IMG/VR virus record: IMGVR_UViG_3300037083_000054
Span: 32,001-96,000 of that record
Strand: one strand, 5' to 3'
Length of the DNA: 64,000 bases
Source: a virus
Numbering within the stretch: the first letter of the stretch is position 1; the number at the start of each line of letters is the position of its first letter. This document shows positions 11,870-36,160 of the stretch, in pieces. A program made the position numbers and the translations under genes. Below the pieces are notes generated by a model, which was not told the DNA's origin, made no database searches, and was given only the letters and a program-made list of their open reading frames with translations.

Positions 11870-11890
11870 GTTGTCCAGTTGTTTGTCCAC

Positions 11891-15341: not shown

Positions 15342-15431
15342 TCAAAAACAGGACTGCCGATCGGGATTCCACCGATCACCAACAATTTTTGTAGCTGGCA
15401 GTCCATTTACGGCCCGGCAGTCCCGTATATG

Positions 15432-16467: not shown

Positions 16468-16589
16468 TATGCGAACTCCCGATTGACTACGTACCGGGAG
16501 TTGCTACCATGCCATCGCCATAACCGCATGGTTCTCCCAGAGAACAAAAGAACGCCAGCAATCCCCATTGCTGGCGTTTATCATTTTCC
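16468..16589 (-). ncRNA. conserved structured element, copy A
   Basis: Aligns with 24002-24121 and 35462-35592; stems conserved. Confidence 0.7.
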
Positions 16590-16618
16590 AAGATTCATTC
16601 TGAACTGCAATGGCAGAT

Positions 16619-17125
16619 TCAGATTGATCTCTCGGTCTCAATTTTGACTGTCGACATCGTTGCCCAGACCATCAACAAGATCCATACGATGCCGGTCCAC
16701 GCCAAACAGAAGTTCAGAATCAGGATCGGAACCAGATTCCGATGTGCTCGTAAATAGGCGATTATGGACGGCAAGAAATGCAACAAGATTAAAGCAACAA
16801 TGGCAACTGATCCAAATGCCGCGAAAAACACGGCGCGAATTTTGTCGTCGGCCAATGTCTTATTGTTCGCAAAAATCCCCACGCACATTACGACAAACAA
16901 GAGTGCAGTAAGAATCGCAGAGCCAATGACGATAATTTTCCCTTGTCCGTTCTTCGTCCAATAAACTGAAGAATGATCCGATTTCTGGATGATAATTGGT
17001 TCTTCTTTGTCGGCATCACACCTTGGACACACGGTCATTTTCGATGTGTTTGCCGTTGCCGGTATTGCGTAAACTTTACCGCACGACGGACAGGTCCATT
17101 TTTGACGTGACGCACCTGAAGACAT
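16619..17125 (-). CDS. Zn-ribbon + superinfection immunity (T4 Imm-like) membrane protein
   Basis: CPSC/CPRC; C-terminal HFLPSIIAYLRAHRN..PILILNFCLAWTGIVWILLMVWA. Confidence 0.8.
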   Translation of the reverse strand: MSSGASRQKWTCPSCGKVYAIPATANTSKMTVCPRCDADKEEPIIIQKSDHSSVYWTKNGQGKIIVIGSAILTALLFVVMCVGIFANNKTLADDKIRAVFFAAFGSVAIVALILLHFLPSIIAYLRAHRNLVPILILNFCLAWTGIVWILLMVWATMSTVKIETERSI

Positions 17126-17160
17126 GATCTCTCTTTCGTCGTGTTGAGTGTTGAGCAGAA

Positions 17161-17199
17161 AAGACGCATCGGATGCTTGTAAGACTACCGATGCGTCTT
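17161..17199. terminator. hairpin downstream of transposase A
   Basis: 12-bp arms AAGACGCATCGG / CCGATGCGTCTT; T-run on the minus strand. Confidence 0.6.
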
Positions 17200-17220
17200 G
17201 CTGAGATTCAAGCGATGCGT

Positions 17221-18438
17221 TTACTTCGCGAATGCAGGTTCGATACCTAGTTCGTAAAACTCACTGATTAGGCAGCAGATGTTATGTGCCAAAACCTTAC
17301 ACAGAACTTCGTTTTTCATGGCGATTTCGGTCTTGCTGCGAACTGAATCTCCGAACTTGCGTTTTACCATTGAGAATGTGGATTCAATGTTACTCCGCTT
17401 GTGATACGACTGAAGAAACTCCTCACGGTACAAGCTGAAGAAATGAAATGCCTTGCCAAACAATCCACCGATGCCGCCTGTAGTTCCCGAACGAAACGTG
17501 ATGTATGGCTCGGCCCCGAGAGCATTGATGGCTCGGAAGTTCGATTCGCTCGCATACTGAGTGTCGGCACTCACTTCCTTAACGTCGAAATTCTTTGCGG
17601 TTGTCTGCATGAGTGCTGGCAGAAGTGGTGAATCATTCGCGTTGCGGTCAAGGATTTCCACAGCCGTGATGACATTCGTTTTCACCCCGCACACGGCATG
17701 CAGCTTGACCCAAGTATGCTCAGTCCTGACTTTTCCATATTTATGATCGAACCATCTAATGAACTTCGACGATGTGAAACCTGATGAATCAACCGCAAAA
17801 TCGGTTTCAACGCTTTTGAGCGGCAAACTGGATGTCTGGATCAATTGAACAAGATGTTCCGTCATTTCTTCATCTTCTAGCGCAGTGCTGATCGCATTGA
17901 AATGCGGTGTTCGTTCGATATACCCCTTGTACTTCGCATCGTCCAGATCGCACATAAATCTTCTCTGGCTGACAGTGCTGTAAACCTTGAAACAGGCCAT
18001 GAATATGCAGTCAGACATGGGAATTCGTGGGCGACCGCGTCCAGGCGTCGCTAAGGGTGCCTTGACGTTGTCGCACAGCGATCGCAATAGCGACTGAAAG
18101 TGATCTTTCTCGCTCGTCTGCGCCTGATTGTATTCCGCCCACATTTGAGGATATGTCGGACGTTTGACGGTCGTAGAAATAGTCACTTCCTCAGTCGTTG
18201 TCTCAGTGCCGTCCGCGTTCTGCTCGCGTTTGATGACATATCGGACGGCGTAAATGTGCTTGCACTCTTGACCACGTTTTTCGAAGTCCGGGCAATTGCA
18301 ATAGGGCGTTTGCTCATCTGCCACGACGGTGTATTTGCCTTCGCCTGTCTGACTGGGGACGATCCACACTTGTCCTTTTTGCACAATTCGACTTCCGGCA
18401 GCGATCGTAGCACCACGTTGTTCTCTTGCTTCGCACAT
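17221..18438 (-). CDS. DDE transposase with N-terminal SWIM zinc finger
   Basis: CNCPDF..CKH; FAVDSSG, SADTQY, RSNIESTF; start set by homology to 32195. Confidence 0.9.
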   Translation of the reverse strand: MCEAREQRGATIAAGSRIVQKGQVWIVPSQTGEGKYTVVADEQTPYCNCPDFEKRGQECKHIYAVRYVIKREQNADGTETTTEEVTISTTVKRPTYPQMWAEYNQAQTSEKDHFQSLLRSLCDNVKAPLATPGRGRPRIPMSDCIFMACFKVYSTVSQRRFMCDLDDAKYKGYIERTPHFNAISTALEDEEMTEHLVQLIQTSSLPLKSVETDFAVDSSGFTSSKFIRWFDHKYGKVRTEHTWVKLHAVCGVKTNVITAVEILDRNANDSPLLPALMQTTAKNFDVKEVSADTQYASESNFRAINALGAEPYITFRSGTTGGIGGLFGKAFHFFSLYREEFLQSYHKRSNIESTFSMVKRKFGDSVRSKTEIAMKNEVLCKVLAHNICCLISEFYELGIEPAFAK

Positions 18439-18571
18439 GACTTGCCTCTTTTTCTGTTGAGGCATTCCCGATAGAATCGCAATTGCTATGTCGCGGATTG
18501 GCGGGAACGCCAGTTTGTGATTCGCCCCGGTTTCGATTCGCAGTCGATTCCGGGTTTTCCTTACGCATAGT

Positions 18572-18638
18572 ATTGTACGGACATAATTATCGGAAGTCAA
18601 TAAGAAACCATTGACAAAAATAATTTTGTCCGTACACT
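18572..18638. promoter_or_regulatory. divergent promoters with inverted-repeat operator
   Basis: TGTACGGACA / TGTCCGTACA overlapping the -10 boxes; TTGACA (+) and TTGACT-17-TACAAT (-). Confidence 0.7.
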
Positions 18639-18644
18639 TCCAGC

Positions 18645-18902
18645 ATGCACGAAAAACGACCAGGAAGACCGCCAAAGTCAGGCGTCGCATTCGGAGTTCG
18701 CATCGAGATTCGAGCGACGGACGAAGAGCGAGACCGCATCGACAAGGCGGCGAGCATTGCCGGTAAAGAGCGATCCGAGTGGATTCGTAGCACGCTGCAA
18801 TTAGCGGCGAATCAGACAATTGAAGAACATGATTCACAACCAGTGTTGAAAATGACGAAGAGATCTGTAAAATCAAAGAAGACCGGCCATGCTGGAACAT
18901 GA
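18645..18902 (+). CDS. small RHH/MobC-like regulator
   Basis: RPGRPPK then IEIRATDEERDRIDKAA...SEWIRSTL. Confidence 0.75.
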   Translation: MHEKRPGRPPKSGVAFGVRIEIRATDEERDRIDKAASIAGKERSEWIRSTLQLAANQTIEEHDSQPVLKMTKRSVKSKKTGHAGT

Positions 18903-19183
18903 CCGGCTTCGAGAGAAAAACGCCAATCTTCGGGATTGGCACCGATGGCATCCTGCCATCACCTGCTATCCGTCGAGGAACAGCCTGTCATTGCGGCAAA
19001 TTGCCGTCTTGTCAGATCGAACCAAAACGGAAGCAGGCCATGAAGCCATATGGCTTGCATGGCAGTCCTCCTGAAAACCGAGCGATTGGATTATCTTGGG
19101 TTCTAAGTCAAAGTACCCAATCCTCGGTCACTGAGGCACCACTATCCACAGTGGCCCGGATGTCGCCTCGTTTGGCATCCGGG

Positions 19184-19534
19184 TTATTTCTTCGCTTCCT
19201 CTCCACTCCATTTCCCGTCCGGGAGCTTTCTGAAGTTTTTGTCGTTCAGCGTGGTATTGACAGTTCCCTGCGGAATTCCTGATTTGGCGATAACGTCACG
19301 ACGCAACATCGGCCCCTCTTTAATCAAAAACTCTCTCAATTCTTGAACCCTAGTCTTTCCCGCAGTAGTGGCATTGCCTGCTGGCGTTTTATTGCCTCCG
19401 CCTGCCGGAGTTTTCTGATTCGACCGGGGCGGTTTTGAAGTAATTCGCTCAATTGCTTCTGCACCGAGCATTAATTCCTCCACTGTCGTTCCGATTGCAA
19501 TCCAGCCATTTTCTGTTTTTTGAATTGATGCCAT
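19184..19534 (-). CDS. passenger protein with winged-HTH-like C-terminus
   Basis: LREFLIKEGPMLRRDVIAKSGIPQGTV. Confidence 0.55.
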   Translation of the reverse strand: MASIQKTENGWIAIGTTVEELMLGAEAIERITSKPPRSNQKTPAGGGNKTPAGNATTAGKTRVQELREFLIKEGPMLRRDVIAKSGIPQGTVNTTLNDKNFRKLPDGKWSGEEAKK

Positions 19535-19767
19535 ACAAGTCCCCGCGATTCTGTTCCAGACGTCGATAATGACAATACTTATGAATGGTATCGACCATAA
19601 CGTAAAAAGCAATAGCGCAGGGAACGACCATAATTTGGTCATGCGTCCATATTGCCTGAAAACGAAAAAGGCCCGGAGATCCGCAGATCACCGAGCCTTG
19701 ATAAGTTTGAGAAAGCCCCCGTCAGTTGATTAAAAGTGCAGAACTGCGATTATTCGTGCAAGTGCCA

Positions 19768-20316
19768 TTAAACGTGCAAAGCCACCGCACCAGTGGCAAA
19801 AGAAATCAGAGCGACTGCCCGCATGATGGGGAATCCGAGGCCCGCGACGGTGGTTTTGACTCGTGGGAATTCCAATTGGTTCTCAGCAGTATCCGGCATT
19901 GAGAGTGTCGTACCGTCAGCCAGGAACAGTTCACGGCCTCGCCAGTGCCAAGCATTGTCGGCAGTACCGTGAACGCTGCATCCGATTTCCTTCGCAAGTC
20001 GCGACATCACTTGAAGAGGGAAGCGACTGCGGGCGTCGGCATAGCTAGCGGATGACGCTGAACAGGCAGGAAGTCCATTCGCCACGCGATGAGCCAGAAT
20101 CCGGCTCACAGCTTCATTGAGCGATTTATCTTGACTGAGACACTGAGACAGCCACGCCCATAGAGTGACCAGCGGGCAAAACACTCGTTGACGATATTCG
20201 TGCCCTTCATCTTCGAGAACACCGACAACATGGTCGCGTTTGAGAAGTCGTCCAAATGGAAGCCCGTCATCATTTGCAAATGTGTCACGAACTAAGCGGA
20301 AGTCTTTTCTGCTCAT
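19768..20316 (-). pseudogene. IS4-family transposase, 3'-truncated by element A
   Basis: RQRVFCPLVTLWAWLSQ, SYADARSR, LADGTTLSMPDT, GFP; reads into the TIR and stops. Confidence 0.85.
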
Positions 20317-20551
20317 CTGATTCGCCTTTTCTTCAGGGCGAACCGTGATAGAATGCTGTTGTGATACGGGGCATTCTGGCGGATTCGCTGGTTTGAACTG
20401 GACCCGGTTTCGACGCCAATTGAAGCCGGGTTTTTCTTTTGTCAGGTCGCCAAACCCAACGCATGAAATAATATCAATCCTCTGATTTATTGTCCAGACA
20501 AAAAAACATTCGAATTGACAAATTTTTGTCTGGACGTAATATGTCGGAATC

Positions 20552-20749
20552 ATGAAGCACAAAACTGATCCACTGAAGCGGGGTCGATCGTCGACCGGGC
20601 AAATGCCGATGAAGTATTTCAGGATTGCGGACGAAGACTGGCAACAGATCGAATCTGCGGCCAGTGCGTCCGATGAAACGACTTCTGAATACATTCGCCG
20701 AGTCCTGTTGAAAGACTCGGCCCGCATTCTCAAGAAAAAAGATGCCTAG
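20552..20749 (+). CDS. small RHH-like regulator
   Basis: KRGRS..FRIADEDWQQIESAA...SEYIRRVL; operator IR at 20492-20535. Confidence 0.7.
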   Translation: MKHKTDPLKRGRSSTGQMPMKYFRIADEDWQQIESAASASDETTSEYIRRVLLKDSARILKKKDA

Positions 20750-21258
20750 ACTTCACCGCCCTGGAGATTTAATCTATGCAACCGATCAGGATGCCTGTTA
20801 TTGCTCGGTATTGCAGACGTGACAGATATTCCCAGAACCAGTAAACATACCGCGATCCTTGCAGAGCAGACATTTCTGTCCCTTCCTTGTTTTGCTTGTT
20901 TGTGGAGTGTCAGTAGAGCGTCAAACCACATCCGAGCGAGTTGCTGGGGATAAAACGTAAGAGACAGTCATCAGGCCCCAACCTGATGACTTCTTTTTTT
21001 GGAGGACTCCAAAAACTCAATGGACGATTTCATATACAGGACCGTTTTCAAAAGCGAAAAAGATTCTTTCAATCTCACTTATCCGCCCATTCAACCTACG
21101 CAAATCCAAAAGCAGAAAAGAGACAAGGCCCCGCCAAGTTATCGATACTTGACGGGGCTCATTGTTTCAGAGTTATTCAGATGAGCAATCGCAGTTGCCA
21201 TGTGTGTTCGCGCGAACACTTTCTTGCGCGCGAACACTTTGTTCGCGTTTTGTTCGCG

Positions 21259-21957
21259 CTATGGGTTGTATCGACCGCGTGCTTTGAGCATGCGAAGGCT
21301 CGCCAGTAGTCGCTTGGCTTTAGTGTCGCTTCCTAATGTTTCTCCCGTAAATTCACGAGCGGTTTGATTTTGGCTTTTGCCGCTTCCCTTGTCAGAGTTC
21401 AATCGAATGGCGAGATCGCGAATATCAGGATTATCAGGAATTCCTTTCGGGAACATTTTGTGAGTGTTCGCGTCGATGGCGATCTTTTGTGCAGCCAACT
21501 CAATGCCAGCATTCAGAATGTCATCAATTGCTGAGGACGGAATTGGATGAAATGTATATCCATACCGATGAATGCGATGAGATTCGTAACATGCGACTGA
21601 TGACCGCACGACATGGCTGACCCAAGGTAATTTCAGAAGTTTGCGGAACAAATGCGCGAGACGTGACGTAGGATAGGAAACTATGATTTGCGAATGGATT
21701 GATCGCAGCAGACTCGCCATTGTCTGCAATGCGGGTATGTTCGCAATTGCTTCGGCAAGACTCGGCTCAGGATTTGTATTCAGAAGCCCTGAAAACAGAG
21801 ACGATTCCCCGGCAGTAGAATCCGCATCCAATTCTCGTTCGTCGTCCACGGTAAACAACCATTCTGCCATTTCTGGTGGATTGCCTTGTGGATGAAAATA
21901 CTGCCTTAGGTGAACGGCCAATTGATGCAACTCTCCGACCAGAATATCTGCCGTCAT
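21259..21957 (-). CDS. hypothetical protein, possible C-terminal HTH
   Basis: 232-aa ORF. Confidence 0.55.
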   Translation of the reverse strand: MTADILVGELHQLAVHLRQYFHPQGNPPEMAEWLFTVDDERELDADSTAGESSLFSGLLNTNPEPSLAEAIANIPALQTMASLLRSIHSQIIVSYPTSRLAHLFRKLLKLPWVSHVVRSSVACYESHRIHRYGYTFHPIPSSAIDDILNAGIELAAQKIAIDANTHKMFPKGIPDNPDIRDLAIRLNSDKGSGKSQNQTAREFTGETLGSDTKAKRLLASLRMLKARGRYNP

Positions 21958-22431
21958 TGCGCTGCCCGATCATGCCTCAACCTTGATAATAAGCCATATG
22001 GAAAATCTTCATTATCAATATTGTGATTTGAATTAGACTGCGAAAGCAAACGATCGTCTCTCTGTCGAAAGCATTGTTTCCCAAGATTGAGAATATCACA
22101 TTGTGATTTATCTCGGTCTCGTCGTCATCGCCTTGAATCCTGCTCCGCCGAAGCGGTAGTCTGCTGTCGATTGAGAGAGTTCGTTTAGTGATTAGGAGTT
22201 TTGACGTGTGGCCGATTTGGTCACTAATGACATTGTGAATTGACGCGTGTGCGTCTCTGCTTCGCCGAAAATCCGCCAACTTGGACCGCCTATGGTTCTT
22301 GAAATGGAAGCAGTGCTTCGACCGCGCTCCCGCAAGGGAGCGTCGGCGTGGTGCTGTTCCGTTTCATCCCTTGGCGGGGATTCGGCGAGCGGTCCTGTCG
22401 ACGCTCTTTTTCGTTTTCGGGGGCCAGATCA

Positions 22432-23952
22432 ATGCAACGATTTGAATGGACCTGTCCAGGATGCCAGAAGAAATTCAGTGTTCCCACACTTGAAGGGTTG
22501 ACCCTGTGTCCTGCCTGTCAGCCGTTCAAGCTTGATACGTCTCAGTCGCCACCGAGCATTAAGCGTGTTCAGAAAAAACAAACCACTTCCCTGCTTGCTT
22601 TGACTTCCTGTGTGATTTTAATCCCTGTCATTATTTGGCAATGGCATCACCTGATTTCATCAGGGAAACTCGCTGAGATTGCTGCGATTTTCCCCGCAGA
22701 AGACATCGGGAAATCTCCGGTTCGAAAATGGCTGAAAGACAATCTCGATGATGGGTCTTGGGAAGAAGTGAAATGGTGGCCAACGATTCCCACTCAAACA
22801 CTCTATAACGCCAATGCTCTGCGACTGCTGGAACATATCGAGGAACAAAAGAGTCGATTCGAGAGAGGTCTTCCAACAAAGCATGACGCTCTTGCCCATT
22901 GCAAAGCTCAATTAGACGCATTTCAAGTAGCTGGAGTTCGTCATTTTTGTGCCATCAAATTTCGAACAAAAAGCCCCTTTGGAGGAATGGTTCTTCAGAC
23001 GCGAACATTTGAAATTCGTGAAAGAGAGGCCATCCCACTGAAAGCCGATCGGATTGTGGAGCAGGATATTCGCGATGCGGAAGTCATCACTCATGATGTT
23101 TGGGATTTTCTCAATAACTCTGAATACGACCCTTCGCCGCAGCCGTTCCCCTTGAAAATCACTGAACGGATTCGCACGGCCCTTGTCTGGAAGAAGCCGA
23201 AAAAGAAAGAAGCAAAAGAGGAAAATCCGGAGCCAATCGTTCAGCAGGAGCGAAACATTCGCCCGCGCCCGATGCAAGTCCAAATGCCAGTTGAACAAAT
23301 TGAAATTCCTGAACGGAAGCCACATCAAATCGTCAAAAACGACCCGCCAATGGAGAAGCCACCGGAACTACAAAGTGGTGTTCCGAAGAAGGTTCGCGAA
23401 TATTTCGAACGAAGCAATGAATTGAAAAACAAACAAAAAGAATTGGAGTCTCAGAGCGACAAACTGGAGTCCGCAATCAAAGGGGCAGCACCCGCGAGCA
23501 AAAATATTTTGCGTGACAAGCTGACGACAGTCAATAAATCATTAGTGGAACTCAAAAAGTTGAAGTTCATACCATTCATGCCGTCGTCGCCGGAATTCGG
23601 CGATATTGGTTCGTTCAGGGCAATTGAAGTGCGGGCAATCTTTAACGATGAAACCGCCATTATCGCATGGTCCCCGAACGGATATTCACCAAATGGCGAA
23701 TTATTGAATCCGATCTATCACTTGGTTGTCACACCAATTGACGCGAAGCAGGCGAAAGTTGGTAAATCGGCTGTGAATACCGATCTCTTCCGAATCACGG
23801 CAAGTCGCGAAGTTCCTCTGCCTATTATGAATGATGACATGGTTAAAGCCGTCTATGATGCGCCTCTCATGTTCGTGGCCGAACCGGTCAAGAAATACGA
23901 GATCGAACAATATCGCGAACAGTACCAAAAAGAAAACACTAAAAAGAAATAG
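22432..23952 (+). CDS. Zn-ribbon + TM protein with large extracytoplasmic domain
   Basis: WTCPGC..CPAC and a TM helix; start reassigned to ATG 22432. Confidence 0.7.
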   Translation: MQRFEWTCPGCQKKFSVPTLEGLTLCPACQPFKLDTSQSPPSIKRVQKKQTTSLLALTSCVILIPVIIWQWHHLISSGKLAEIAAIFPAEDIGKSPVRKWLKDNLDDGSWEEVKWWPTIPTQTLYNANALRLLEHIEEQKSRFERGLPTKHDALAHCKAQLDAFQVAGVRHFCAIKFRTKSPFGGMVLQTRTFEIREREAIPLKADRIVEQDIRDAEVITHDVWDFLNNSEYDPSPQPFPLKITERIRTALVWKKPKKKEAKEENPEPIVQQERNIRPRPMQVQMPVEQIEIPERKPHQIVKNDPPMEKPPELQSGVPKKVREYFERSNELKNKQKELESQSDKLESAIKGAAPASKNILRDKLTTVNKSLVELKKLKFIPFMPSSPEFGDIGSFRAIEVRAIFNDETAIIAWSPNGYSPNGELLNPIYHLVVTPIDAKQAKVGKSAVNTDLFRITASREVPLPIMNDDMVKAVYDAPLMFVAEPVKKYEIEQYREQYQKENTKKK

Positions 23953-24001
23953 CACGTTTGTGATATTGGCAAGAGATTGCAAGTTTTCCGAAATGATTCA
24001 C

Positions 24002-24121
24002 AATGCAAAACGCCAGCAACGGAAATTGCTGGCGTTGTTTGTTCTCGTTGGGAGAACCGTGCCGAAATGGTGTCAGCATGGTAACGACTCCCGATTTGTT
24101 TTCAAGATGGGAGTCGCATCA
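24002..24121 (+). ncRNA. conserved structured element, copy C
   Basis: Same four stems as copies A and B. Confidence 0.65.
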
Positions 24122-24475
24122 ATGTTTCTGGTCATCGACAAAAACGATCACTTCATATTCCTTCAAGCCGACCCGAGCATGGAGGAGAATTTTCATCTGA
24201 CTGTCGTGAAAGATGTAGAAATTAGGTGGGATATGAAACCATACGGAAATGGATTGTGGCCAGACTCTACCGAACGATCAGTTCGAATGGGAGAAACCGG
24301 ACAGAATCCCAACAATCGAAAGCAATATCGTTATTTCAAGTGTCGCGATGATTTAATTGCGGCTGGATATGAAATGGTTGATAAAACTCACGCGATCAAG
24401 GAACCTCCACGTGAAGCGGCTTCGTGGTCGGAATATCTGAAACAATGCGAACAGCGGGGTGAGTCCACCACATAA
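24122..24475 (+). CDS. hypothetical protein
   Basis: GGGAG RBS within the element; MFLVIDKNDH. Confidence 0.6.
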   Translation: MFLVIDKNDHFIFLQADPSMEENFHLTVVKDVEIRWDMKPYGNGLWPDSTERSVRMGETGQNPNNRKQYRYFKCRDDLIAAGYEMVDKTHAIKEPPREAASWSEYLKQCEQRGESTT

Positions 24476-24720
24476 TTGTGACTTCAGTTCCGTCTCGCTC
24501 AAAAACGAACCCCCAATCGGCAATTTTTTTTGGTGACCCGTGAGCATTAATAGCGGTAAGTTGCACGCGGTCGTCTGCGAACAGGTCGACGAGACTCTGA
24601 ATCAGTTCCATAACTTTCGGCTTATTCCGATTGACGCCTGTTTCACCCATGACATTTCATTCCTTTTTCAAATCGTATATATCATAAAATCGCCATTTTT
24701 CAGGCCCAATTCCTTATCCT

Positions 24721-24806
24721 AGTGCCATTCTAGATTCGAACTACCATGAATCTTTCGATCCGCAGAATTTTAAGTTCTGTGCGTTTGCCAGTTTCGCCAC
24801 GCATTC
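24721..24806 (-). tRNA. tRNA-Leu(TAA)-like pseudogene
   Basis: D arm, CAGAA-CTTAAAA-TTCTG anticodon arm, long variable arm, GTTCGAAT; acceptor stem does not pair. Confidence 0.6.
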
Positions 24807-24810
24807 AAAA

Positions 24811-24879
24811 TGGATGATGTAGGATTCGAACCCACGCCGCAGGATTTACATCCCCGTTCTACCGCTGAACTAATCATCC
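24811..24879 (-). tRNA. tRNA-Tyr(GTA)-like, atypical
   Basis: Perfect acceptor GGATGAT/ATCATCC, D and T arms; about 1 nt short around the anticodon arm; short variable loop. Confidence 0.65.
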
Positions 24880-24975
24880 GTCGGCAGTTCTCTCAATCAT
24901 CATCTCGAAGGCAAATGACAACGCCAGATACACACTGCCAATCTCTCTGGCTCTCTCACGGTTTGTTCAATTCAG

Positions 24976-25129
24976 TTGTCACGGCAGGATTCGAACCTGC
25001 ATCACGCTTAGTCCACGGTCCGCATACGCGGTTACGCTGCTGCTCTCGCTGTGATTTAGGCAGGTCCGCCTTGGATTGAGCATCACCAAAGTTATCCCGC
25101 CGCGTCTCTACCAGTTCCGCCACATGACA
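24976..25129 (-). ncRNA. tRNA-like RNA with large insert
   Basis: Acceptor TGTCATG/CGTGACA, D arm, T arm GCAGG-TTCGAAT-CCTGC; about 100 nt between the D and T arms. Confidence 0.65.
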
Positions 25130-25165
25130 ACGGATGCCGTTTTCCATCGACTCATTTTCCGGCTG

Positions 25166-25441
25166 TCACAACAGTTGACGATTGCCCACTTCAATGACTT
25201 GTTCAGCGATCGCCTTACCGCCGCCAAATACGAAGCCCCCAAGTTCTCTGCCAGCATCGGGCCGACTATTGAAGACACGACTGAGAATGATTCCGCACAA
25301 TTCGAGTAATTCATGACAAGCCCGCAATTCCGTGGCACTGAGCGGGACATGATCGTCTTGAGCGATGAGATGTTCAATGACGTCATCGCATTCGCGAAGC
25401 TTACTAAGCGTTCCGCGAAATCGCCAGTTGTCATGATGCAT
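25166..25441 (-). CDS. hypothetical protein
   Basis: AAGGAG RBS before MHHDNW. Confidence 0.5.
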   Translation of the reverse strand: MHHDNWRFRGTLSKLRECDDVIEHLIAQDDHVPLSATELRACHELLELCGIILSRVFNSRPDAGRELGGFVFGGGKAIAEQVIEVGNRQLL

Positions 25442-25757
25442 TCTGAGTCTCCTTTGGGGCAGGCGATCCCGGCTTCTCTCGCGGCGAAATGCCGAGTCTC
25501 CGCAGCCGATCATTCAATGTTCTCGGAGCAATCGCCAATTGACGACACATTTCCATTCGATTCCCGCCGCACCGATGATATGCCGATCGAATCGCGGCAT
25601 CTTCGAGTTCCTGCAATGTTGCGGTCGGATTTCCGAGCATCGCTTGATCCTGAAGGAACTCAATCTCTCGCAGTAAATCCAAGATAGTCAACGACTTCGT
25701 ATCACTTGAAGCACTATGCGTGAATCGAATATGCTCGATTATTTCCTTTGTCATCAT
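25431..25757 (-). CDS. Fis-type HTH protein
   Basis: LQELEDAAIRSAY..CGGNR...RQLAIAPRTL..RLRRLGI. Confidence 0.8.
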   Translation of the reverse strand: MMTKEIIEHIRFTHSASSDTKSLTILDLLREIEFLQDQAMLGNPTATLQELEDAAIRSAYHRCGGNRMEMCRQLAIAPRTLNDRLRRLGISPREKPGSPAPKETQNAS

Positions 25758-27904: not shown

Positions 27905-27906
27905 TC

Positions 27907-28377
27907 ATGGATTTGATCGACCGCATTAGCCGAGCTAAATCAAACGACGATGTCGATCGCTATTCATTTGAGGAATCGAAACATCCTCGCGGCGACGGCG
28001 GAAAGTGGTCTGGAGTCGATCATGCCGCAAAAGCGGTCGAACACTCCAAGTCGGCAATGGATCGTCCGGCGAACTCAAAAGGCGACCCGAAGATTGTTGC
28101 GGGCTGGGCACACGAAGCGTCTGAGGATGCTCACGAGGCCACAAAATCGGCCACAGATGCCAAGTCCCATGAGAAAGCGGCAGCGGCTCACAAGTCAGCC
28201 GCGAGACTCCATGCTTCGAACGCCAAGTTTCATTATTACCATACAAATCCGATGTTGCATGAGGCTGCCGAAGATCACGAGAAGGCGGCTGACATCCATA
28301 GGACACTTCAGCAAAAGCACTCGGAAATGGCTGGCGGTCCGAAGATGGACAAGTTCGCAAACCGGACACTTTCATAG
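27907..28377 (+). CDS. putative internal head protein, His-rich helical
   Basis: Leader DRYSF + ESKHPRGDGGKW; HxxAAxxH repeats. Confidence 0.6.
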   Translation: MDLIDRISRAKSNDDVDRYSFEESKHPRGDGGKWSGVDHAAKAVEHSKSAMDRPANSKGDPKIVAGWAHEASEDAHEATKSATDAKSHEKAAAAHKSAARLHASNAKFHYYHTNPMLHEAAEDHEKAADIHRTLQQKHSEMAGGPKMDKFANRTLS

Positions 28378-28396
28378 TCGATAAGGAATGTGAATC

Positions 28397-28918
28397 ATGG
28401 AACTGACAGACCGCATCAATCAAGCTCGATCGCAGTACGAAGTCGATCGCTATTCCTTCAACCCTGATCAGAAGCGGGACGAATCCGGGAAATGGTCAAA
28501 ATCCGAAGATGAATCGAACAGCGATTATCACAAAGCTCGCGACGAGGCAACTGAAGCCACTCGTGTATCTCATGTGCAGACGAAGGACGCCGTTACCTAT
28601 GCTCCGTGGCGATTCACAACCAAAGTTCTGTCGCCATCTATGCAAGAGGCTCTCGAAAAGCAGCGGTCAAACAAACCTGCCTATGAGTTTTCCTCGAACG
28701 CAATTGAAATGGCAAAGCGTGGTTATCACGGAATCGCGAGCGAGTTTCATCAAGCCGCCGCAGAAGACCATCAAAAAGCGATTGATGAACATCCTTGGGG
28801 CCGCGAGAAAGAACGCCATCATCTTGCGAAAAATGGCCATCTCGAAGCGTCCGAACTTCATCTCAAAGCACACGCCTTGCAGAAAAAGCGTGCGGCGGAC
28901 GATCGGCCTTCCGAGTAA
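28397..28918 (+). CDS. putative internal head protein, His-rich helical
   Basis: Leader DRYSF + QKRDESGKW; HxxAxxxH repeats. Confidence 0.6.
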   Translation: MELTDRINQARSQYEVDRYSFNPDQKRDESGKWSKSEDESNSDYHKARDEATEATRVSHVQTKDAVTYAPWRFTTKVLSPSMQEALEKQRSNKPAYEFSSNAIEMAKRGYHGIASEFHQAAAEDHQKAIDEHPWGREKERHHLAKNGHLEASELHLKAHALQKKRAADDRPSE

Positions 28919-28987
28919 TAAATTTCGCCTGATTGGTATGTCTGGAAAATAACACGCTTATTTATTTCGTTCAGGAATTTACGGCAA

Positions 28988-30838
28988 ATGAGCACAATCC
29001 GAGAGCGAATTCGTGGTGCGGTTGACTTGTATTCTTTTAATACAAACGAGAAGCGTGATGCTGATGGAAGATGGGCTTCCAGCGGCGATGCTCATTCGGA
29101 AGCCGAGCGAGCGAATTCCGTGTTCAGGAAGCATGAGCAACCGACCGCTTCTGCGTCCGTTGACGAGGATGGTTCGTACAAGGTCGAGCATCCCACGCAT
29201 GGGGAATTGACTTCGAACGAGATTGATAACCTGCATTCCGCCGCATCGGATGTCGATCGAGCCAACAAAGTGCTCTCGAAGCACGGCCATGAACCTCTGG
29301 CGACAATCGGCGACGACATGCAGACAACGCACGATCCTGACAACCTCGAAGATGCGAGCGATGAGGTCAAGCGAGCCAATAAGGTCTTCGAAAAGCACGG
29401 ACTGCCGGATCGAGCGAATCTGGAAAATGTGAGTGGTATGTTCGGCGATTACAACTCGTCAGTGGACGCCGACGAACTTGAGCAAGCCGACGCGGATCAC
29501 GAGAAGGTCAAGAGGATCTTCGAAAAGCACGGGATTGACCCAAAGCATTCCAGCATCACAAACGCGAACGGTTCGTGGGAGTCAAAACACAATCTCGACG
29601 ATATTGAGTCCCTGCATCAGGACATTTCGCGGGCCAACAAACGATTGGAAGCGATTGGGTTGAAACCGAATCTGAAGATGGCGATTCAGTTGGGGGAAGC
29701 TTACTCGCCGCATGATCTGGATGAAATCAATGACGCGATCGACGTTCTGAAGAAGTTCCGAGACAAGGAACGATATTCACGCCGCGAGGATCTATCGTCG
29801 ATTGTGCGGGCCAAATACGTTCTGCGGGATTTCGCGATTGACCGCTATGCCGAAGGTCACTGGATTACAGTTGAGCCATCTGGGACGCATATTGAGCTTG
29901 ATGGCAAAGGAAACGTTCTCAAAGGTCCGAACATCAATAAAAGTCCACACGGAACGCTTCCGCCTCCTGCTAAACCAAAAGTTAAGACTCCTATTCAAGA
30001 TCCAATGTTGCGAGGAACAACGCCGCTTCCGCCTCCTGCTAATAAGAAATTGCCGCCAGTTCCCGGACAAGAACCGCCATCCGCTCCATCATGGTTCAAA
30101 GGCGGCAAGAAAAGCGAAGTTTCCGCTCCCGGAAGCATGACTCATCGTTTGCGATCGGCAATGGAAAATCATGTTCACTCAGTTGTCCAGCCGAAGAAGG
30201 ATGAACACTTTGCGGAACATGCCCCCGAAGAAAAGGCAGCCTCCCAAATGACTCCCGATGAGCATCTCCGCAAAACCGTGGAAGACATCAAAAAGCGACT
30301 TGCCGCAAGCGTGAAGCAAGCGGTTGCCTCGCCATCAGCCGAGAAGCCCAAGCCGAAAAAGCTGACGGCCCAGATTGATCCGGAAACGACGAAAGCGGCC
30401 TTTGCTCCGAAAGCCAAACCGGAAAAGAAACCGGAGATGCCGAAACCGCAGTCGGTCGCTCCTGCCGCTCCAACTCCGCATACCGATTTCTCGCAAGATC
30501 GACTCGCTGTCAATCGAGCGAAATCAACAGGCGATACAGAACAAGCGAAACAACTTCAGTCCGTCTTGACGAACAAAATCGCAGCGGCAATGGGAATCGT
30601 TCAGACGTCAGCGAGTGCCATCAATGACTTTGAAGCACGGCTGCGGAATGGGGTCGCGAACTACGCGAAACGCAAGTCAGCGGTTGGCCAATTGGATCTG
30701 TTTTCCGGCGAGACTCGATCATCATCCAAAACACAATCGCACTTGGATTGGGACGAGAGTAAGCATCATCGGGGGCTTTGCCCATTTAATGGCACTTGCC
30801 CGAATAATGAAAGGTCTGCCCGTTTAATCGGTGCATGA
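28988..30838 (+). pseudogene. multi-domain (polyvalent-like) head-associated protein truncated by element B
   Basis: DLYSF + KRDADGRW leader, five RANKV.EKHG-type repeats, WITV..GTHIELD motif; runs into the TIR at DWDESKHHRG. Confidence 0.65.
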
Positions 30839-30847
30839 AAAATTATC

Positions 30848-31183
30848 ATGGCCATGAAGCCTGAAGAACTATTCAATTTAGCCGTCACAGACAAGTTTCC
30901 CGACTATTTCCATCCAGGGCAAGGCGATTTGGTGCCAGACGATCTTCTGTCGGCCATGATTGTCCGCTGTGGCGCTCCAGATCTGGGCGGAAAAACGAAC
31001 AGTGCGCTTGAGGGTGGTGGGCTGGTGATCGATTACATTCCAAAAGGAATGCTTGGCGTCAAGCGGCTTGTGCTGAGTTTAAATGATTTGGGAATCAATG
31101 TTGTTATGTGTGATCACCTTCCAGAAGATAATGAGACCATTGTGGATTCAGTTCCACTAAATACCGCCGAACAGCATTCTTGA
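30848..31183 (+). CDS. passenger hypothetical protein
   Basis: 111-aa ORF inside the element. Confidence 0.5.
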   Translation: MAMKPEELFNLAVTDKFPDYFHPGQGDLVPDDLLSAMIVRCGAPDLGGKTNSALEGGGLVIDYIPKGMLGVKRLVLSLNDLGINVVMCDHLPEDNETIVDSVPLNTAEQHS

Positions 31184-31721
31184 CGTGCGTCAGTTCATGA
31201 ATGTGGAAAGCCTGCTCGATTGGCGTTCCTTCGTGGTGATATCTCCATTTGGAGAATACTTCTGAGCAGTCGTTCAAAATCTGATCAATTGTCGCTTTCT
31301 GTTTTGGTTGTGTTGTATCTGAACAAAACTGAATGCGAACAAGATCTTTTGAACTATTCTCTTCATATAAAGCAGCAATCTTCTTCTGGCTGTTGGCTGT
31401 CATTTTCTGAAACAATTCGTTCAGTGGGTGTATTCGCTTGATAGATGTGTTTTCGCATTTGAGAACGGACTTGAAATACAACTCAACACAGAAAGCTGTT
31501 GCGACAACGAATGCTTTTAGAGTGGGAAGCCGTGTTTCAACTGTTGATCTTGGGTTTTTCTGATGTTCAACCCTCGCTGCTTCGAGACGATTCAGCGAGT
31601 CAGCGGCGAGAACCTCAGACGAATAGTCCCAATTGACCGCATTGGCAAATAACCCAATTCCAGTGTCGTATGGTTCTGTGTCGAGGGCCACATGGTAAAT
31701 CGTCATATTCGTTGAATCCAT
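31104..31721 (-). CDS. HEPN-like protein
   Basis: AFCVELYFKS...HPLNELF...FSKWRY pattern. Confidence 0.55.
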   Translation of the reverse strand: MDSTNMTIYHVALDTEPYDTGIGLFANAVNWDYSSEVLAADSLNRLEAARVEHQKNPRSTVETRLPTLKAFVVATAFCVELYFKSVLKCENTSIKRIHPLNELFQKMTANSQKKIAALYEENSSKDLVRIQFCSDTTQPKQKATIDQILNDCSEVFSKWRYHHEGTPIEQAFHIHELTHVKNAVRRYLVELNPQWSHYLLEGDHT

Positions 31722-31805
31722 AATTCGCGCGAACCATGTCCGATGTCATGACGTCTTAAGAATATCATGATTCAACATTTGACTCTCTTCGCCCCCACGC
31801 TCTAA

Positions 31806-31997
31806 TCACGACTTCTTTCGTGATTGCTCACGCCGAGCTTCTTCCAGCAGAATTTCCCTGGCCCAGGTAGATGTGTGACCATCTGCCGCCGCGTCGAGAA
31901 CTGTTCGCTCCTCTTTCGTGAGGCGAATACGCAGTTCTGCACTCTTGCGTGCCGCATCGGATTTGAAGGGCCGTCCCCGTTCTCGTTTGGTTTCCAT
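31806..31997 (-). CDS. small RHH/MobC-like regulator
   Basis: RGRPFK..LRIRLTKEERTVLDAAA...STWAREILL. Confidence 0.75.
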   Translation of the reverse strand: METKRERGRPFKSDAARKSAELRIRLTKEERTVLDAAADGHTSTWAREILLEEARREQSRKKS

Positions 31998-32008
31998 ATT
32001 ATTTACGA

Positions 32009-32064
32009 TAGCAACAATAAATAATGAGTCAACCCCTTGACGGAGTATTTATTGTTGCTACAAT
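32009..32064. promoter_or_regulatory. operator IR and transposase promoter
   Basis: 15-bp arms TAGCAACAATAAATA / TATTTATTGTTGCTA; TTGACG-16-TACAAT. Confidence 0.75.
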
Positions 32065-32194
32065 AAATCAGTCGAAACAAAACCCGGTCGCTGCTGAAAC
32101 AACAACCGGGAGCAACCACAACCAGCGTTTCCACTGAATGCGATCAACCAAGTTCATTCTACTGGAAACGCCTCTTAAGAAAAGAGGCTTCATC

Positions 32195-33463
32195 ATGTGC
32201 GACCGGGAACAACGAGGTTTGGCAATCGCGGCAATGACGAAAATCAAACGATGCGGTTATGTGTGGGTCGTTCCCAGCCAGTCCGGAAGCGGTAAATACT
32301 CGGTTTCTCCAGACGAACAGTCCCCCTATTGCTCGTGCCCCGACTTTGAAACGCGGGGCGTCACCTGTAAGCATATTTTCGCGGTTCGATTCACGATGAA
32401 GCGAGAACAGCATAGCGATGGTTCAGAGACGATCACAGAAAGCGTGACCGTCACGGAGACGGTACGTAAAACGTATCCGCAGAAATGGAAGGAGTACAAC
32501 GAAGCACAGAAAAATGAGAAAGACCACTTTCAAGCGTTGCTCCGCAGTCTGTGCGACATGATCAAGGAACCAAACGTTAAGCCCGGTCGTGGACGGCCCA
32601 AGCTGGCGATGTCCGATTGCGTGTTCATGTCATGCTTCAAGGTTTACTCGACCGTCTCGCAGCGTCGGTTTATGTGCGATTTGGATGACGCAACGGAAAA
32701 AGGATATCTGGAGCGGACTCCGCACTACAATGCCATCGGAGCGTCACTCGAAGGCGAAGCGATGACGCCAGTCCTTATGAAACTGATCGCTGCATCAAGC
32801 CTGCCATTGAAGGAAGTCGAAACGGATTTCGCTGTCGATTCGACTGGATTCACAACCTCGAAATTCTATCGCTGGTACGATCACAAGTATGGAAAAGTCC
32901 GCGAAGATCACGACTGGGTCAAATTGCACGCAGTTTGCGGAGTGAAGACGAACGTGATTACCGCAGTTGAGATTCACGAACGGAACACGAACGATTGCCC
33001 GCTTCTGCCATCGCTCTTGGCAAAGACCGCCGAGAACTTCACGGTCAATGAGATGTCAGCCGACAAGCAATATGCCTCGCGTGACAACTTTGACGCCATT
33101 AACGCGATTGGTGCCGACGCCTACATTCCATTCAAAGCGAACGCGACCGGGAGCGTGGGAGGAATGTTCCAGAAGGCGTTTCACTTCTTCAGCCTGTACC
33201 GGGAAGACTTCCTGAAATCCTACCACAAACGGAGTAACATCGAGTCCACGTTCAGCATGTTGAAACGCAAGCATGGGGACAGCGTCCGAAGCAAGACGGA
33301 GGTCGCGATGAAAAACGAAGTGCTGTGCAAGGTTCTCTGTCACAATATCTGCTGCCTGATTTCCGCGATTCACGAATTGGGAATCCAGCCGGTTTTTGAT
33401 AAGCTGATCGGCTGCACATTTAATCGGGAACCTGCACAAGAAATCGCCGCTTTTCGGGATTAA
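32195..33463 (+). CDS. DDE transposase with SWIM zinc finger
   Basis: CSCPDF..CKH; FAVDSTG, SADKQY, RSNIESTF; close paralog of 17221-18438. Confidence 0.92.
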   Translation: MCDREQRGLAIAAMTKIKRCGYVWVVPSQSGSGKYSVSPDEQSPYCSCPDFETRGVTCKHIFAVRFTMKREQHSDGSETITESVTVTETVRKTYPQKWKEYNEAQKNEKDHFQALLRSLCDMIKEPNVKPGRGRPKLAMSDCVFMSCFKVYSTVSQRRFMCDLDDATEKGYLERTPHYNAIGASLEGEAMTPVLMKLIAASSLPLKEVETDFAVDSTGFTTSKFYRWYDHKYGKVREDHDWVKLHAVCGVKTNVITAVEIHERNTNDCPLLPSLLAKTAENFTVNEMSADKQYASRDNFDAINAIGADAYIPFKANATGSVGGMFQKAFHFFSLYREDFLKSYHKRSNIESTFSMLKRKHGDSVRSKTEVAMKNEVLCKVLCHNICCLISAIHELGIQPVFDKLIGCTFNREPAQEIAAFRD

Positions 33464-33619
33464 ATGTGCAAAGCCGAGTCGAGCCGACATTTATTAACTC
33501 CTGATCGTCTGTCTCATCAATCAACCGCCAGTAAGCGAGAAATGTTTGCTGGCGGTGCGCATTTGTGGCGTAATGCTATTGGATAAATGTCTAACCCTGG
33601 ATGATAATCGCGAATCAAT

Positions 33620-34207
33620 TTGTCGAGATCCGAAGGGAATCGCGAGGCTATTCGAATGTGCGTCGAAGACAACATTTTCTCGGATGATTGGGAAAACACC
33701 AACGCCGGTCGATCCGTCAATATTTGGTTTGATCACTATTTCAAAAATGTGTCGGACGACGCCACTGATAAGTACGACGTCATTTACGGATACTCCGATA
33801 CGGTCTGGTCAGAATACATTGCGGCCAAGCGTCACATTGACACCAAAGCGGAAGGGATTTTGCGATTTGGTGCCGCGTCGGCGACGGTTGTCATTGCCCT
33901 CGCGAAATTGAACTCAGTACCCAATTGGGTTGCATTTACCCCCTTTGGATTCTTTTGCATTGCGGCAGCATTTTCTCTTGCGGCAACACGAATCACGATA
34001 TGGCCGCATCCATTGCCGATCAAGGAAGCTCTTCTCAGATTGGCGGAATTTCACCTCGGCACGCAAAAGGCGATGTTGGCTGCCAACATTCACCGAGCGG
34101 CTGTTGGATATGAGATCCTACTCAGGCGACGGGCGAAGTTGCTTGGCTGCGCATACACGTTTACCGCAGTCGGCATTTTATCACTCGCCCTGTTTCTATT
34201 CTTCTAA
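33620..34207 (+). CDS. three-TM membrane protein
   Basis: IDTKAEGIL, two TM helices, a loop and a final TM; start uncertain. Confidence 0.55.
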   Translation: MSRSEGNREAIRMCVEDNIFSDDWENTNAGRSVNIWFDHYFKNVSDDATDKYDVIYGYSDTVWSEYIAAKRHIDTKAEGILRFGAASATVVIALAKLNSVPNWVAFTPFGFFCIAAAFSLAATRITIWPHPLPIKEALLRLAEFHLGTQKAMLAANIHRAAVGYEILLRRRAKLLGCAYTFTAVGILSLALFLFF

Positions 34208-34675
34208 TCCACCGGCTGGATTGCCGTGTTCGGTGCCGCCCGTTTTTGAATACGGCATGTGCCGCTGTGGATTGGCAAGCGATTCGCGAGGCGGTTTGAT
34301 TTGCTGCTGCGGCGACGTCACGGCAACTGGATTGGCAGTCGGAATAACAGCAGGAACCGATTGAGCGTCCGTGGTTGCTGTGGGGACCGGTATGTTTGAT
34401 TCTTGATTCTGCTGCGTATCCATTTTCCACCCATCATGATTTGTCGAACGATCAACAACTCTCGACGAATTAACTTAACCGCCTCGTTCTTCATATCAGT
34501 ATTGTGATTTGCATTCACTGACGAAAGCGAGTGATTCAAGCCTCATGGAAACCAGTGTTTCTCAAAATCGGGAATATCACACTGTGATATATCAGGAAGC
34601 CCGTAATGTCTCCTTGAACAACTCCAACTCGAATCGGTAGCCTTTCTGGCGACGGATTCGAGTTTTTTCATATTA

Positions 34676-35422
34676 GTGAAATGGAGAATCTGCATTGTGA
34701 TGCGCAAGAGATATTCCAGCAGCATAGTCGTCATTACGATTGCATCGGCAATTTTCGTCTCTCTCACATTAGGGGAAGACGACGAATCGAAGACCACGAT
34801 CGCGGCAACGGCAAAGCAGAAAGAACTGCTGGAAAAAGACCCGTTTATCAAAAAGTCCATTGCGGAATTTGAACGAGACGTTCGACTTGCCGAAGAAGCC
34901 TTGCGTCACGCGAAATTCTCTTGTGCCAGCCGGTCTGTGGAACTTTATGAGCACTATCAAAAAGTGTTCACGATGGCGGGCGATTTTGACAAGGCCCTCG
35001 CCTGCAAAACGATGATTGAAGAATTGGAAGCGAGCGGGATGGAATGCTCGCGACCCCGACCGAAGCACACCATTAAGTCGAACGGCCATTTATACGCAAT
35101 CATTCGTGAAGCGGAGACATGGCATGTCGCCAAGCATCGCTGCGAGCAGATGGGAGGACATCTTGCCTATGCAAAGACTCCAGCCGTTATCGCGATGATT
35201 TCCAGAATGTCAGTAGGCGTTGATGTGCATTTGGGAGCGTCTGACGAAGAGAAGGAAGGCGAGTGGAAATGGCTGGATGGAACGAAATATTCACCAAGGC
35301 CCGGATTGATGAATAATGCCATGACTTATCAACACCACCTGATGTGGCTAGATGGTCAGCAAACACTGGACGACGGTTTTGCCGGTCATCGAGCGTATTA
35401 CATCTGCGAATGGGACAAGTGA
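34676..35422 (+). CDS. secreted C-type lectin domain protein
   Basis: Signal peptide; GHLY..TW..AK..C..MGGHLA, LGASDEEKEGEWKWLDG, YICEW. Confidence 0.85.
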   Translation: MKWRICIVMRKRYSSSIVVITIASAIFVSLTLGEDDESKTTIAATAKQKELLEKDPFIKKSIAEFERDVRLAEEALRHAKFSCASRSVELYEHYQKVFTMAGDFDKALACKTMIEELEASGMECSRPRPKHTIKSNGHLYAIIREAETWHVAKHRCEQMGGHLAYAKTPAVIAMISRMSVGVDVHLGASDEEKEGEWKWLDGTKYSPRPGLMNNAMTYQHHLMWLDGQQTLDDGFAGHRAYYICEWDK

Positions 35423-35461
35423 CCGACCATGAATTTGCCATTGCAGTTCGCGACGAATCCC

Positions 35462-35592
35462 GGAAAATGACAAACGCCACGAACTGGTATTCGTGGCGTT
35501 CTCTGATTCAACGTTCTCGGGATGAGAACCATGCAGTTATGGTGACAGTATGGTAACGACTCCCGGTACGCAGTCAACTGGGAGTTTGCAAC
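35462..35592 (+). ncRNA. conserved structured element, copy B
   Basis: Aligns with copies A and C. Confidence 0.7.
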
Positions 35593-35937: not shown

Positions 35938-36160
35938 ATGGCCAAGGAAAATGAAAATCCTTAAGATCGGATATGTGGGAAAAGACGGGATTGAACATTC
36001 AAAAGATGTTTCGCGAGACATCGAACCAGATGATCAATAATGGACTCCAATTTTCCGTTCCGACTGGCATGCCCGATTAATCCCCAGCTTGCCCGTTTAT
36101 TCAGGGCCAAATAGGATTAAATGGGCAAAGCCCGTCCATTCGTGTGATTGCGAGTGAATC

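Follow-up and report, generated by a model that had tools for sequence, protein, structure and literature searches.

The stretch analysed here (the window) comprises 64,000 nucleotides, bases 32,001-96,000 of a 122,834-bp contig of a peat phage, rated 83% complete (IMG/VR record IMGVR_UViG_3300037083_000054). It carries three copies (A, B and C) of an intergenic element in which a promoter-like sequence precedes four ordered stems, P1 to P4, the last of them pairing with the Shine-Dalgarno (SD) sequence of the gene that follows; a fourth, copy D, is found on the same contig 18.5 kb beyond the window end. A preliminary description of this DNA had placed the three copies of the window where we find them and on the same strands, but did not include copy D; a 42-nt degenerate core pattern matches the window three times, against 0.00 matches expected from 100 shuffles. 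The element had been taken to be about 120 nt long. Its homology begins about 35-45 nt further upstream, with a sense promoter-like pair (TTGCAG-16-GAAAAT) that was missed, and comparison of the contig with itself shows that the phage copies are homologous from the −35 hexamer of this pair to the start codon of the next gene and no further, a unit of 150-170 bp. The parts are as follows, in window coordinates except for copy D.

16455..16625, minus strand: copy A, whole cassette from sense −35 to start codon (covariance model score 103-114 bits)
16583..16610, minus strand: copy A, sense promoter-like pair TTGCAG-16-GAAAAT
16551..16578, either strand: copy A, P1, a hairpin of 11-12 bp with T-rich tails on both strands
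16531..16545, minus strand: copy A, P2, GTTCTC/GAGAAC
16508..16530, minus strand: copy A, P3, CATGC...GCATG, the 3' arm overlapping the antisense −10
16483..16510, plus strand: copy A, predicted antisense promoter TTGACT-16-TACCAT
16475..16501, minus strand: copy A, P4, ACTCCCGG/TCGGGAGT, burying the SD GGGAG, with the antisense −35 in its loop
16063..16467, minus strand: gene after copy A, 134 residues, no family hit
23977..24121, plus strand: copy B, whole cassette, TTGCAA-16-CACAAT
24009-24036, 24041-24057, 24058-24080 and 24087-24114: copy B, stems P1, P2, P3 and P4
24078..24105, minus strand: copy B, predicted antisense promoter TTGAAA-16-TACCAT
24122..24475, plus strand: gene after copy B, 117 residues, no family hit
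35441..35592, plus strand: copy C, whole cassette, TTGCAG-16-GAAAAT
35473-35500, 35513-35529, 35530-35552 and 35559-35585: copy C, stems P1, P2, P3 and P4
35550..35577, minus strand: copy C, predicted antisense promoter TTGACT-16-TACCAT
35593..35937, plus strand: gene after copy C, 114 residues, SseB/DUF2750-like by Atlas features and structure (a lead only)
114,532-114,693 of the contig, plus strand: copy D, outside the window

Further copies were sought in cargo-carrying relatives with nhmmer and then with two covariance models, R1 and R2, the latter approach being one that the preliminary description had proposed. R1 was built from three sequences only, because the MAFFT alignments (A2, A4, A5, A6) misplace P2 or P1. 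The genomes sampled are of one bacterial family, the Planctomycetaceae: of 151 genomes from the family of a Schlesneria metagenome-assembled genome (MAG), 7 have matches at E < 1e-8 and 21 at E ≤ 1e-3. Seventeen clean bacterial copies from nine genomes, aligned to R2 at E < 1e-7, join the four phage copies to make the set of 21 used below. Two loci below the cut, L102 (29.6 bits) and L054 (28.8 bits with R1), show the four stems by eye and stand outside the 21; L057/L059, L070 and L088 were not accepted, and L017, a duplicate of L016, is uncounted. Four weak hits that were inspected (L115-L118) proved to be P1-like terminators with no P3 or P4 and were dropped from all counts. Exact-motif scans of viral contigs with three patterns gave no copies; two loci found with a further pattern, and four metagenome loci, match by chance and lack P1, P2 and P4 in their surroundings. 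One bacterial contig (L135, G123:C88:8000-27000, region 5831-15451) carries four copies within 8 kb, adjoining an IS4 transposase, an IS1-like transposase and a GYF plus Imm_superinfect protein, and its module of Imm gene, element and small gene mirrors phage copy A.

The stems P1 to P4 are present as previously drawn, with the compensatory changes noted in P1 (CAGC/GCTG, CACG/CGTG), to which copy D adds CGCG/CGCG. Single-sequence folds of the four phage sense leaders contain P1 and P4 in every case and P3 in three (z-scores −2.9 to −5.6), an alternative helix replacing P3 in the full-length fold of copy D. Across the 21 copies 94.4% of 621 cells form standard pairs, compared with 77.0 ± 0.9% in shuffles, and none of 500 shuffles reaches any of five pairing measures, tests that are inflated by the kinship of the copies; slid registers pair in 34-41% of cells. 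Double changes are found in 25 of 30 pairs, including all eight of P4. Wobble pairs distinguish the strands: read as sense RNA, P3 has 11 G-U and no A-C pairs and P4 has 24 and 2, while P1 has 7 and 6. The excess of G-U over A-C therefore indicates that P3 and P4 fold in the sense RNA, and that P1 is strand-neutral. No family in Rfam 15, the database that the preliminary description had named as a check, matches at its gathering threshold, the whole window yielding a tRNA-Tyr only; for copy A and eight copy-bearing loci the sub-threshold hits are of terminator type (Thr_leader at most 42.6 bits against a threshold of 55, Esr41 25.6 against 102) and lie mostly on the antisense strand.

P4 masks the downstream SD, as had been claimed. 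At least three of the four SD-core nucleotides are paired in 19/21 copies, the mean free energy of P4 is −13.9 kcal/mol, per-sequence folds contain it in the great majority of copies, and its sequence varies together with each gene's own SD. A stem over the SD, kept by compensatory change on the mRNA strand, is what characterises an SD-sequestering translational leader, and it is found here. A GGGA in the P2 loop, considered as an anti-anti-SD, occurs in the four phage copies but is not conserved across the 21.

Two blocks alone are invariant in the element, ATGGTA immediately 3' of P3 and GTCAA within the P4 loop, which on the opposite strand read TTGAC-(16 to 18)-TACCAT. The antisense promoter proposed there is called by a mechanical scan in 4/4 phage copies as TTGA(CT/AA/CG)-16-TACCAT, with 9/12 matches. 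Over the whole set TACCAT and TTGNNN are each present in 21/21 copies and TTGAC in 17/21, with a spacer of 16-18; pairs with at least 9/12 matches occur in 19/21 copies but in 3.3% of shuffles. The two promoter blocks keep their distance to within 3 nt, against a variation of up to 8 nt in the remainder of the P4 loop. In the divergent copy L054 the P3 arms covary (CGCGC/GCGCG) and a TATCAT is shifted relative to them, as judged by eye; the P3 stem is therefore separable from the hexamer. An opposite-strand promoter inside a leader, conserved among copies, is the mark of a cis-antisense cassette and, as the preliminary description had it, predicts a short RNA ending at P1. In folds of these predicted RNAs a free 5' tail of about 13 nt is followed by the P2 hairpin and then by the P1 terminator (z −4.0 to −6.9); the part of the leader that they would cover starts at its 5' end and reaches into the P3 loop. 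In most copies this loop (e.g. 16513-16525, minus strand) holds a recurrent (A/G)UGG(U/C)(A/G)AC-like motif, which on the opposite strand corresponds to the first few transcribed bases of the predicted antisense RNA.

The sense promoter-like pair, for example TTGCAG-16-GAAAAT or TCGACG-17-TAAAAT, ends 4-6 nt before the first P1 position of the model. It reaches at least 7/12 matches at this fixed place in 20/21 copies; of the shuffles, 28% do so at any position of the 49 nt scanned. The gene behind copy D needs a promoter of its own, because the gene upstream (145 residues) is divergent. Between the two promoters lies P1, whose tails are equally T-rich on both strands (5.4 and 5.7 T in 10 nt), which rules out P1 as a one-strand terminator.

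Every phage copy lies inside a transposon, a setting missed in the preliminary description, which had given the context as flanking genes. The transposons of the window are these.

15876..19785, minus strand: SWIM/IS5-like cargo transposon with copy A, perfect 19-bp terminal inverted repeats (transposase 17221-18438)
15785..24730, no strand assigned: IS4-type transposon with copy B and its gene near one end, perfect 19-bp inverted repeats
30773..36133, plus strand: SWIM/IS5-like cargo transposon with copy C (transposase 32138-33463, internal end 33453-33475, right end 36105-36133)

The transposon of copy A is 3.9 kb long, with inverted repeats at 15876-15894 and 19767-19785, and its transposase, of 405 residues, combines a SWIM finger with a DDE_Tnp_1 domain; among NCBIfam models IS5 fits this protein best, with a score below the cut-off. 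The inverted repeats of the IS4-type transposon are at 15785-15803 and 24712-24730, copy B and its open reading frame (ORF) lying about 240 nt from one end, and in two Planctomycetaceae genomes IS4 transposons are bounded by this repeat too, with target duplications of 11 and 12 bp. Behind copies C and D there is in each case a single ORF and next a right end of the SWIM-transposon kind, with three subterminal repeats ending GCAAAGCC. The order element, one gene, transposon end is thus common to all four phage copies, and recurs in the bacterial transposons with mapped ends (L136, L135 and L137); in simple insertion sequence (IS) copies without the element the right end comes directly after the transposase (seven loci inspected). 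In three SWIM transposons homology spans transposase and element, breaks in the P4 loop and resumes only at the right end of about 70 nt. The SWIM transposase family has 3758 matches at ≤1e-5 among 8000 candidates scored, and its nearest relatives are in Schlesneria and other Planctomycetaceae MAGs (up to 76% identity); a single-protein search of viral contigs with the transposase gave no relatives, but alignment-based searches did find them.

The SWIM element at 15876-19785 is nested in the IS4-type element, and its end abuts the stop codon of a 321-residue IS4 transposase fragment (19768-20733, minus strand), a gene that its insertion probably disrupted. A tRNA-Tyr (GTA) gene is found at 24811-24879 (minus strand), 81 nt outside the IS4-type inverted repeat at 24712-24730; contigs of other organisms in the two DNA runs match the tRNA-Tyr stretch only, with loose ends at 24767 and 24799-24801. 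The second DNA run carries identical sequence on the pieces listed. At both ends of the contig (1-383 and 122596-122834) there is the same tandem array, of period about 54 nt and 93-98% identity. The assembly probably broke inside this terminal repeat, and the genome may therefore be circular or terminally redundant.

What immediately precedes the element may be a transposase, of one of three IS types, or a passenger gene. The upstream same-strand neighbour in the 21 copies is a SWIM/IS5-like transposase in three, an IS4 transposase in two, an IS1-like transposase in three (marginal Pfam scores of 24.6-28.6 against a cut-off of 24.1), an Imm_superinfect protein in two, a C-type lectin protein in two (by Pfam for copy C only, and for L103 from a similar C-terminus) and a TerB protein in one; in the other eight it has no assigned family or is divergent. 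Eight of the 21 copies start 17-39 nt past a transposase stop codon, across the three IS types. The gene 3' of the element, the owner of the masked SD, is a transposase in 0/21 copies. Its product ranges from 63 to 263 residues and belongs to at least four unrelated groups, among them small SseB/DUF2750-like, Zn-ribbon and membrane proteins and a DUF4145 protein. Of the labels given earlier to the flanking genes, Imm_superinfect (4e-14) and Lectin_C (3e-8) hold, but the gene upstream of copy B, described as a Zn-ribbon membrane protein, has no family hit; nor is the homology proposed for two downstream genes borne out, those after copies A and C having 22% identity at E = 0.078 (BLASTP).

The flanks form a mosaic, in which related downstream genes are found behind an Imm gene, a lectin gene or an IS4 transposase, and one SWIM transposase precedes three unrelated genes. 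The DUF4145 protein encoded behind L102 (877-1506, minus strand) matches the candidate defence gene PD-T7-4 at 5e-11, and a homolog follows L107 (1622-2008, plus strand), a member of the 21; these matches hint that some of the transposon cargo is anti-phage. On the phage contig the N-terminal coding region of the lectin gene (contig 66739-66860, window 34739-34860) recurs inverted at 114269-114390, with 80% identity over 122 nt, as part of the divergent 145-residue gene upstream of copy D. An intergenic repeat of about 107 nt (22006-22112 and 34488-34593, 77% identity) lies upstream of the genes preceding copies B and C, and may be another shared control region.

The reading that we favour, with moderate confidence, is that the element is a portable promoter and leader unit in which a cis-antisense RNA gates translation of the passenger gene, carried by Planctomycetaceae cargo transposons and through them by this phage. 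On the gene strand a sigma-70-like promoter would give a leader of about 115-125 nt that starts at or just inside P1 and continues through P2 and P3 to P4, which would pair with the SD of the passenger gene, the gene itself starting 5-10 nt later. The predicted antisense promoter is built into P3 and P4, with its −10 TACCAT on the 3' arm of P3 and its −35 TTGAC in the P4 loop; transcription from it would pass back through P2 and stop at P1, leaving an RNA about 75-85 nt long that consists of a free 5' tail, one hairpin and a terminator and is fully complementary to the first two thirds of the leader. Two locks would then act on the gene, constitutive masking of the SD by P4, and capture of the P3 5' arm by the antisense RNA, such that the freed 3' arm pairs with the start-codon region or the duplex is marked for cleavage. 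P1 would act both ways as an insulator between the passenger gene and whichever transposase or cargo gene lies upstream of it. Indeed, when the part covered by the antisense RNA is removed in silico the start codon pairs with the P3 3' arm in 13/21 copies, where 8.1/21 are expected with grafted unrelated gene starts (P about 0.016, uncorrected for relatedness), and in copy D this helix already wins in the full-length fold. The comparison shows the repeat itself, its place in transposons, the covariation of the stems, the strand of P3 and P4, the masked SD and the conservation of both promoter-like pairs; production of either RNA, and the direction and mechanism of regulation, we infer.

Antisense RNAs and leaders that mask the ribosome-binding site (RBS) are classic transposase brakes. 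IS10/Tn10 has face-to-face promoters, and its RNA-OUT is a short structured antisense RNA that covers the RBS and start codon of the transposase gene; the element resembles it in the facing promoter-like pairs and in a predicted short antisense RNA against the mRNA 5' end, but here the overlap ends upstream of the SD and the target is not a transposase. IS200, of the Y1 family, combines an SD-sequestering stem-loop in the 5' untranslated region (5'-UTR) of tnpA with an antisense RNA, again with the transposase as target. An SD-sequestering hairpin and a predicted antisense RNA in a mobile element are common to both, but the IS families differ, as does the target, and there is neither shared structure nor an Rfam hit. 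The toxins of type I toxin-antitoxin systems of the hok/sok type are small hydrophobic peptides, of less than about 60 residues. A folded mRNA, a hidden SD and a predicted short antisense RNA from a promoter inside the leader recall such systems, and a type I toxin-antitoxin function had been proposed in the preliminary description. It is not supported, as the ORFs encode 63 to 263 residues in several unrelated, mostly soluble families, and the predicted antisense RNA reaches neither SD nor start codon. The closest parallel is ISPpu9 of Pseudomonas putida, in which, in the available text of PMC8450116, the transposase 5'-UTR masks the RBS, a complementary and stable cis-antisense RNA, Asr9, activates, and a second small RNA (sRNA), Ssr9, is encoded downstream of the transposase. 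As far as that text describes it, the element shares with ISPpu9 its place inside an IS, a long 5'-UTR folded over the RBS and a (here predicted) cis-antisense RNA against the 5'-UTR; in ISPpu9, however, the transposase is regulated, and here the gene concerned is a passenger, variable and located 3' of the transposase. The sequences are not similar.

Several observations weigh against the proposed cis-antisense control of passenger genes. The alignment used for the pairing test was fitted to the structure by the covariance model, which favours that structure, and RNAalifold applied to a sequence-only MAFFT alignment of 20 of the 21 copies returns only P1 and an extended P3; P2 and P4 are missing there because their arms are misaligned by MAFFT. 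On the sense strand P2 has 2 G-U and 8 A-C pairs, the latter mostly at the apex pair. The excess of start-codon pairing is modest and the copies are related. The predicted antisense RNA overlaps neither SD nor start codon, and any effect on translation must therefore be indirect. Because its T-tails are equal on both strands P1 might also stop transcripts from the sense promoter, which is awkward. The sign of regulation may be other than assumed, as the antisense RNA of ISPpu9 activates. None of the RNA runs listed contains the stretch, and two metatranscriptome runs from the study behind the second DNA run, compared with 20 kb, gave 0 contigs, a neutral outcome that we nevertheless enter on this side.

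Other readings share part of this evidence. The element could be a punctuation and shuffling cassette like the PeSLs of T4-type phages, which the available text of PMC4122927 defines as composite promoter/terminator stem-loop motifs that mediate exchange: P1 would stop transcription from upstream, the promoter-like pair would start it afresh for the gene behind, and passenger genes would be swapped by way of about 150 bp of homology, the antisense promoter and leader stems being secondary. The layout, a short composite of sigma-70-like promoter and terminator hairpin repeated between variable accessory genes of a large phage, is indeed that of a PeSL; P1 is terminator-like in both directions with the promoter-like pair beside it, homology among the phage copies has its limits precisely at the −35 and the start codon, the flanks are mosaic, and the three SWIM transposons diverge inside the P4 loop. 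Such a cassette, however, needs neither P3 nor P4, both of which are kept here on the sense strand by G-U pairs and double changes, with P4 tracking each SD, and the best conserved letters form the predicted antisense promoter. The promoter-like pair precedes the hairpin here instead of following it. Compared by their description in that text, PeSLs moreover have no SD-masking leader or antisense promoter and are not transposon-borne, their setting being the hyperplastic regions of T4-like phages, whereas the element lies in transposons common to Planctomycetaceae chromosomes. We judge this reading unlikely. A cassette recombination site, raised as a possibility in the preliminary description, would likewise suit the mosaic flanks. 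That the antisense RNA instead serves the transposon, dampening transposase or transposition through read-through antisense or pairing in trans in the manner of Ssr9 or RNA-OUT, would suit the eight copies that start just after a transposase stop codon in three IS types, the orientation of the antisense promoter towards the transposase gene, and the sRNA gene downstream of the ISPpu9 transposase (available text of PMC8450116). But copies A, B and C, like several of the bacterial ones, come after passenger genes and copy D after a divergent gene, P1 should end the RNA before the transposase is reached, and the masking of the SD by P4 is left unexplained. Duplex energies of the predicted antisense RNA or leader with transposase leaders, moreover, do not exceed those of shuffles (z −1.0 to −1.75), and this reading is in our view distinctly improbable.

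A leader that acts on the sense strand as a sensor, whether riboswitch, protein-binding leader or RNA thermometer, would make GCAUGGUA and GUCAA an RNA binding site and their likeness to a promoter a coincidence; riboswitch-like sensing had also been proposed in the preliminary description. In its favour, the leader folds well, both P3 and P4 are structures of the sense strand, the SD is sequestered and an RUGGUAAC-like motif recurs in the P3 loop. Yet the invariant letters are only those of the promoter hexamers, at the most conserved sigma-70 positions, and their spacing is kept at 16-18 nt while what remains of the P4 loop is variable; conservation is lacking in the junctions and in the loops of P1 and P2, the genes behind the copies are unrelated and have no common pathway, and no Rfam family matches. 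Of the earlier interpretation, sensing and the toxin-antitoxin function are thus not supported, while the structured SD-masking leader and the conserved antisense promoter are; we hold a sensor to be very improbable. Lower still we place a site that works as DNA, a folded single-strand recombination site like the attC of integrons, or an accessory transposon end, capturing single genes, which is highly improbable in spite of the order element, gene, end in the four phage copies and in L136, L135 and L137, the four copies within 8 kb of one bacterial contig, and the presence of the element behind three unrelated transposase types. Against it stand the G-U excess of P3 and P4, a sign of RNA and not of DNA, and the phasing of the element to the SD and start codon that follow it; among those neighbours that were scanned, only a part of the whole, there is no integrase or other recombinase, tyrosine recombinases included.

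The cis-antisense reading of the element may be extended to its mobility. Element and single downstream ORF might together form a mobile, self-regulated terminal passenger cassette, captured beside the ends of at least three unrelated IS families (SWIM/IS5-like, IS4, IS1-like) and moved from Planctomycetaceae chromosomes to a phage, its leader silencing potentially harmful defence or exclusion genes until a trigger arrives. We put this forward as a doubtful and tentative extension, alongside which the DUF4145/PD-T7-4-like downstream family and the Imm_superinfect genes beside two copies can be named. If true, it would be an integron-like capture of genes for DDE transposons, with an RNA switch as the common adaptor.

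Searches of open-access papers and preprints turned up no description of such an antisense control element for passenger genes in IS elements or in Planctomycetes. Compared with the logic of IS10, IS200 and ISPpu9 what would be new is that the control is aimed at passenger genes, is common to three IS types and has been carried into a phage. As a candidate for a new RNA family the element is well supported, and it belongs to Planctomycetota, a phylum in which, to our knowledge, almost no regulatory RNAs have been characterised. It suggests that the brake logic familiar from transposases is applied in cargo transposons to passenger genes instead, and its reuse by three unrelated IS types and a phage would mark it as a shared adaptor for the safe carriage of accessory genes, some of them defence-like. 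For Planctomycetota it offers a handle on transposon cargo: a search for the element leads to the cargo gene, which is the ORF that follows. In the phage it points to the arrival of at least four accessory genes on transposons of the host, each gene bringing a control region of its own.

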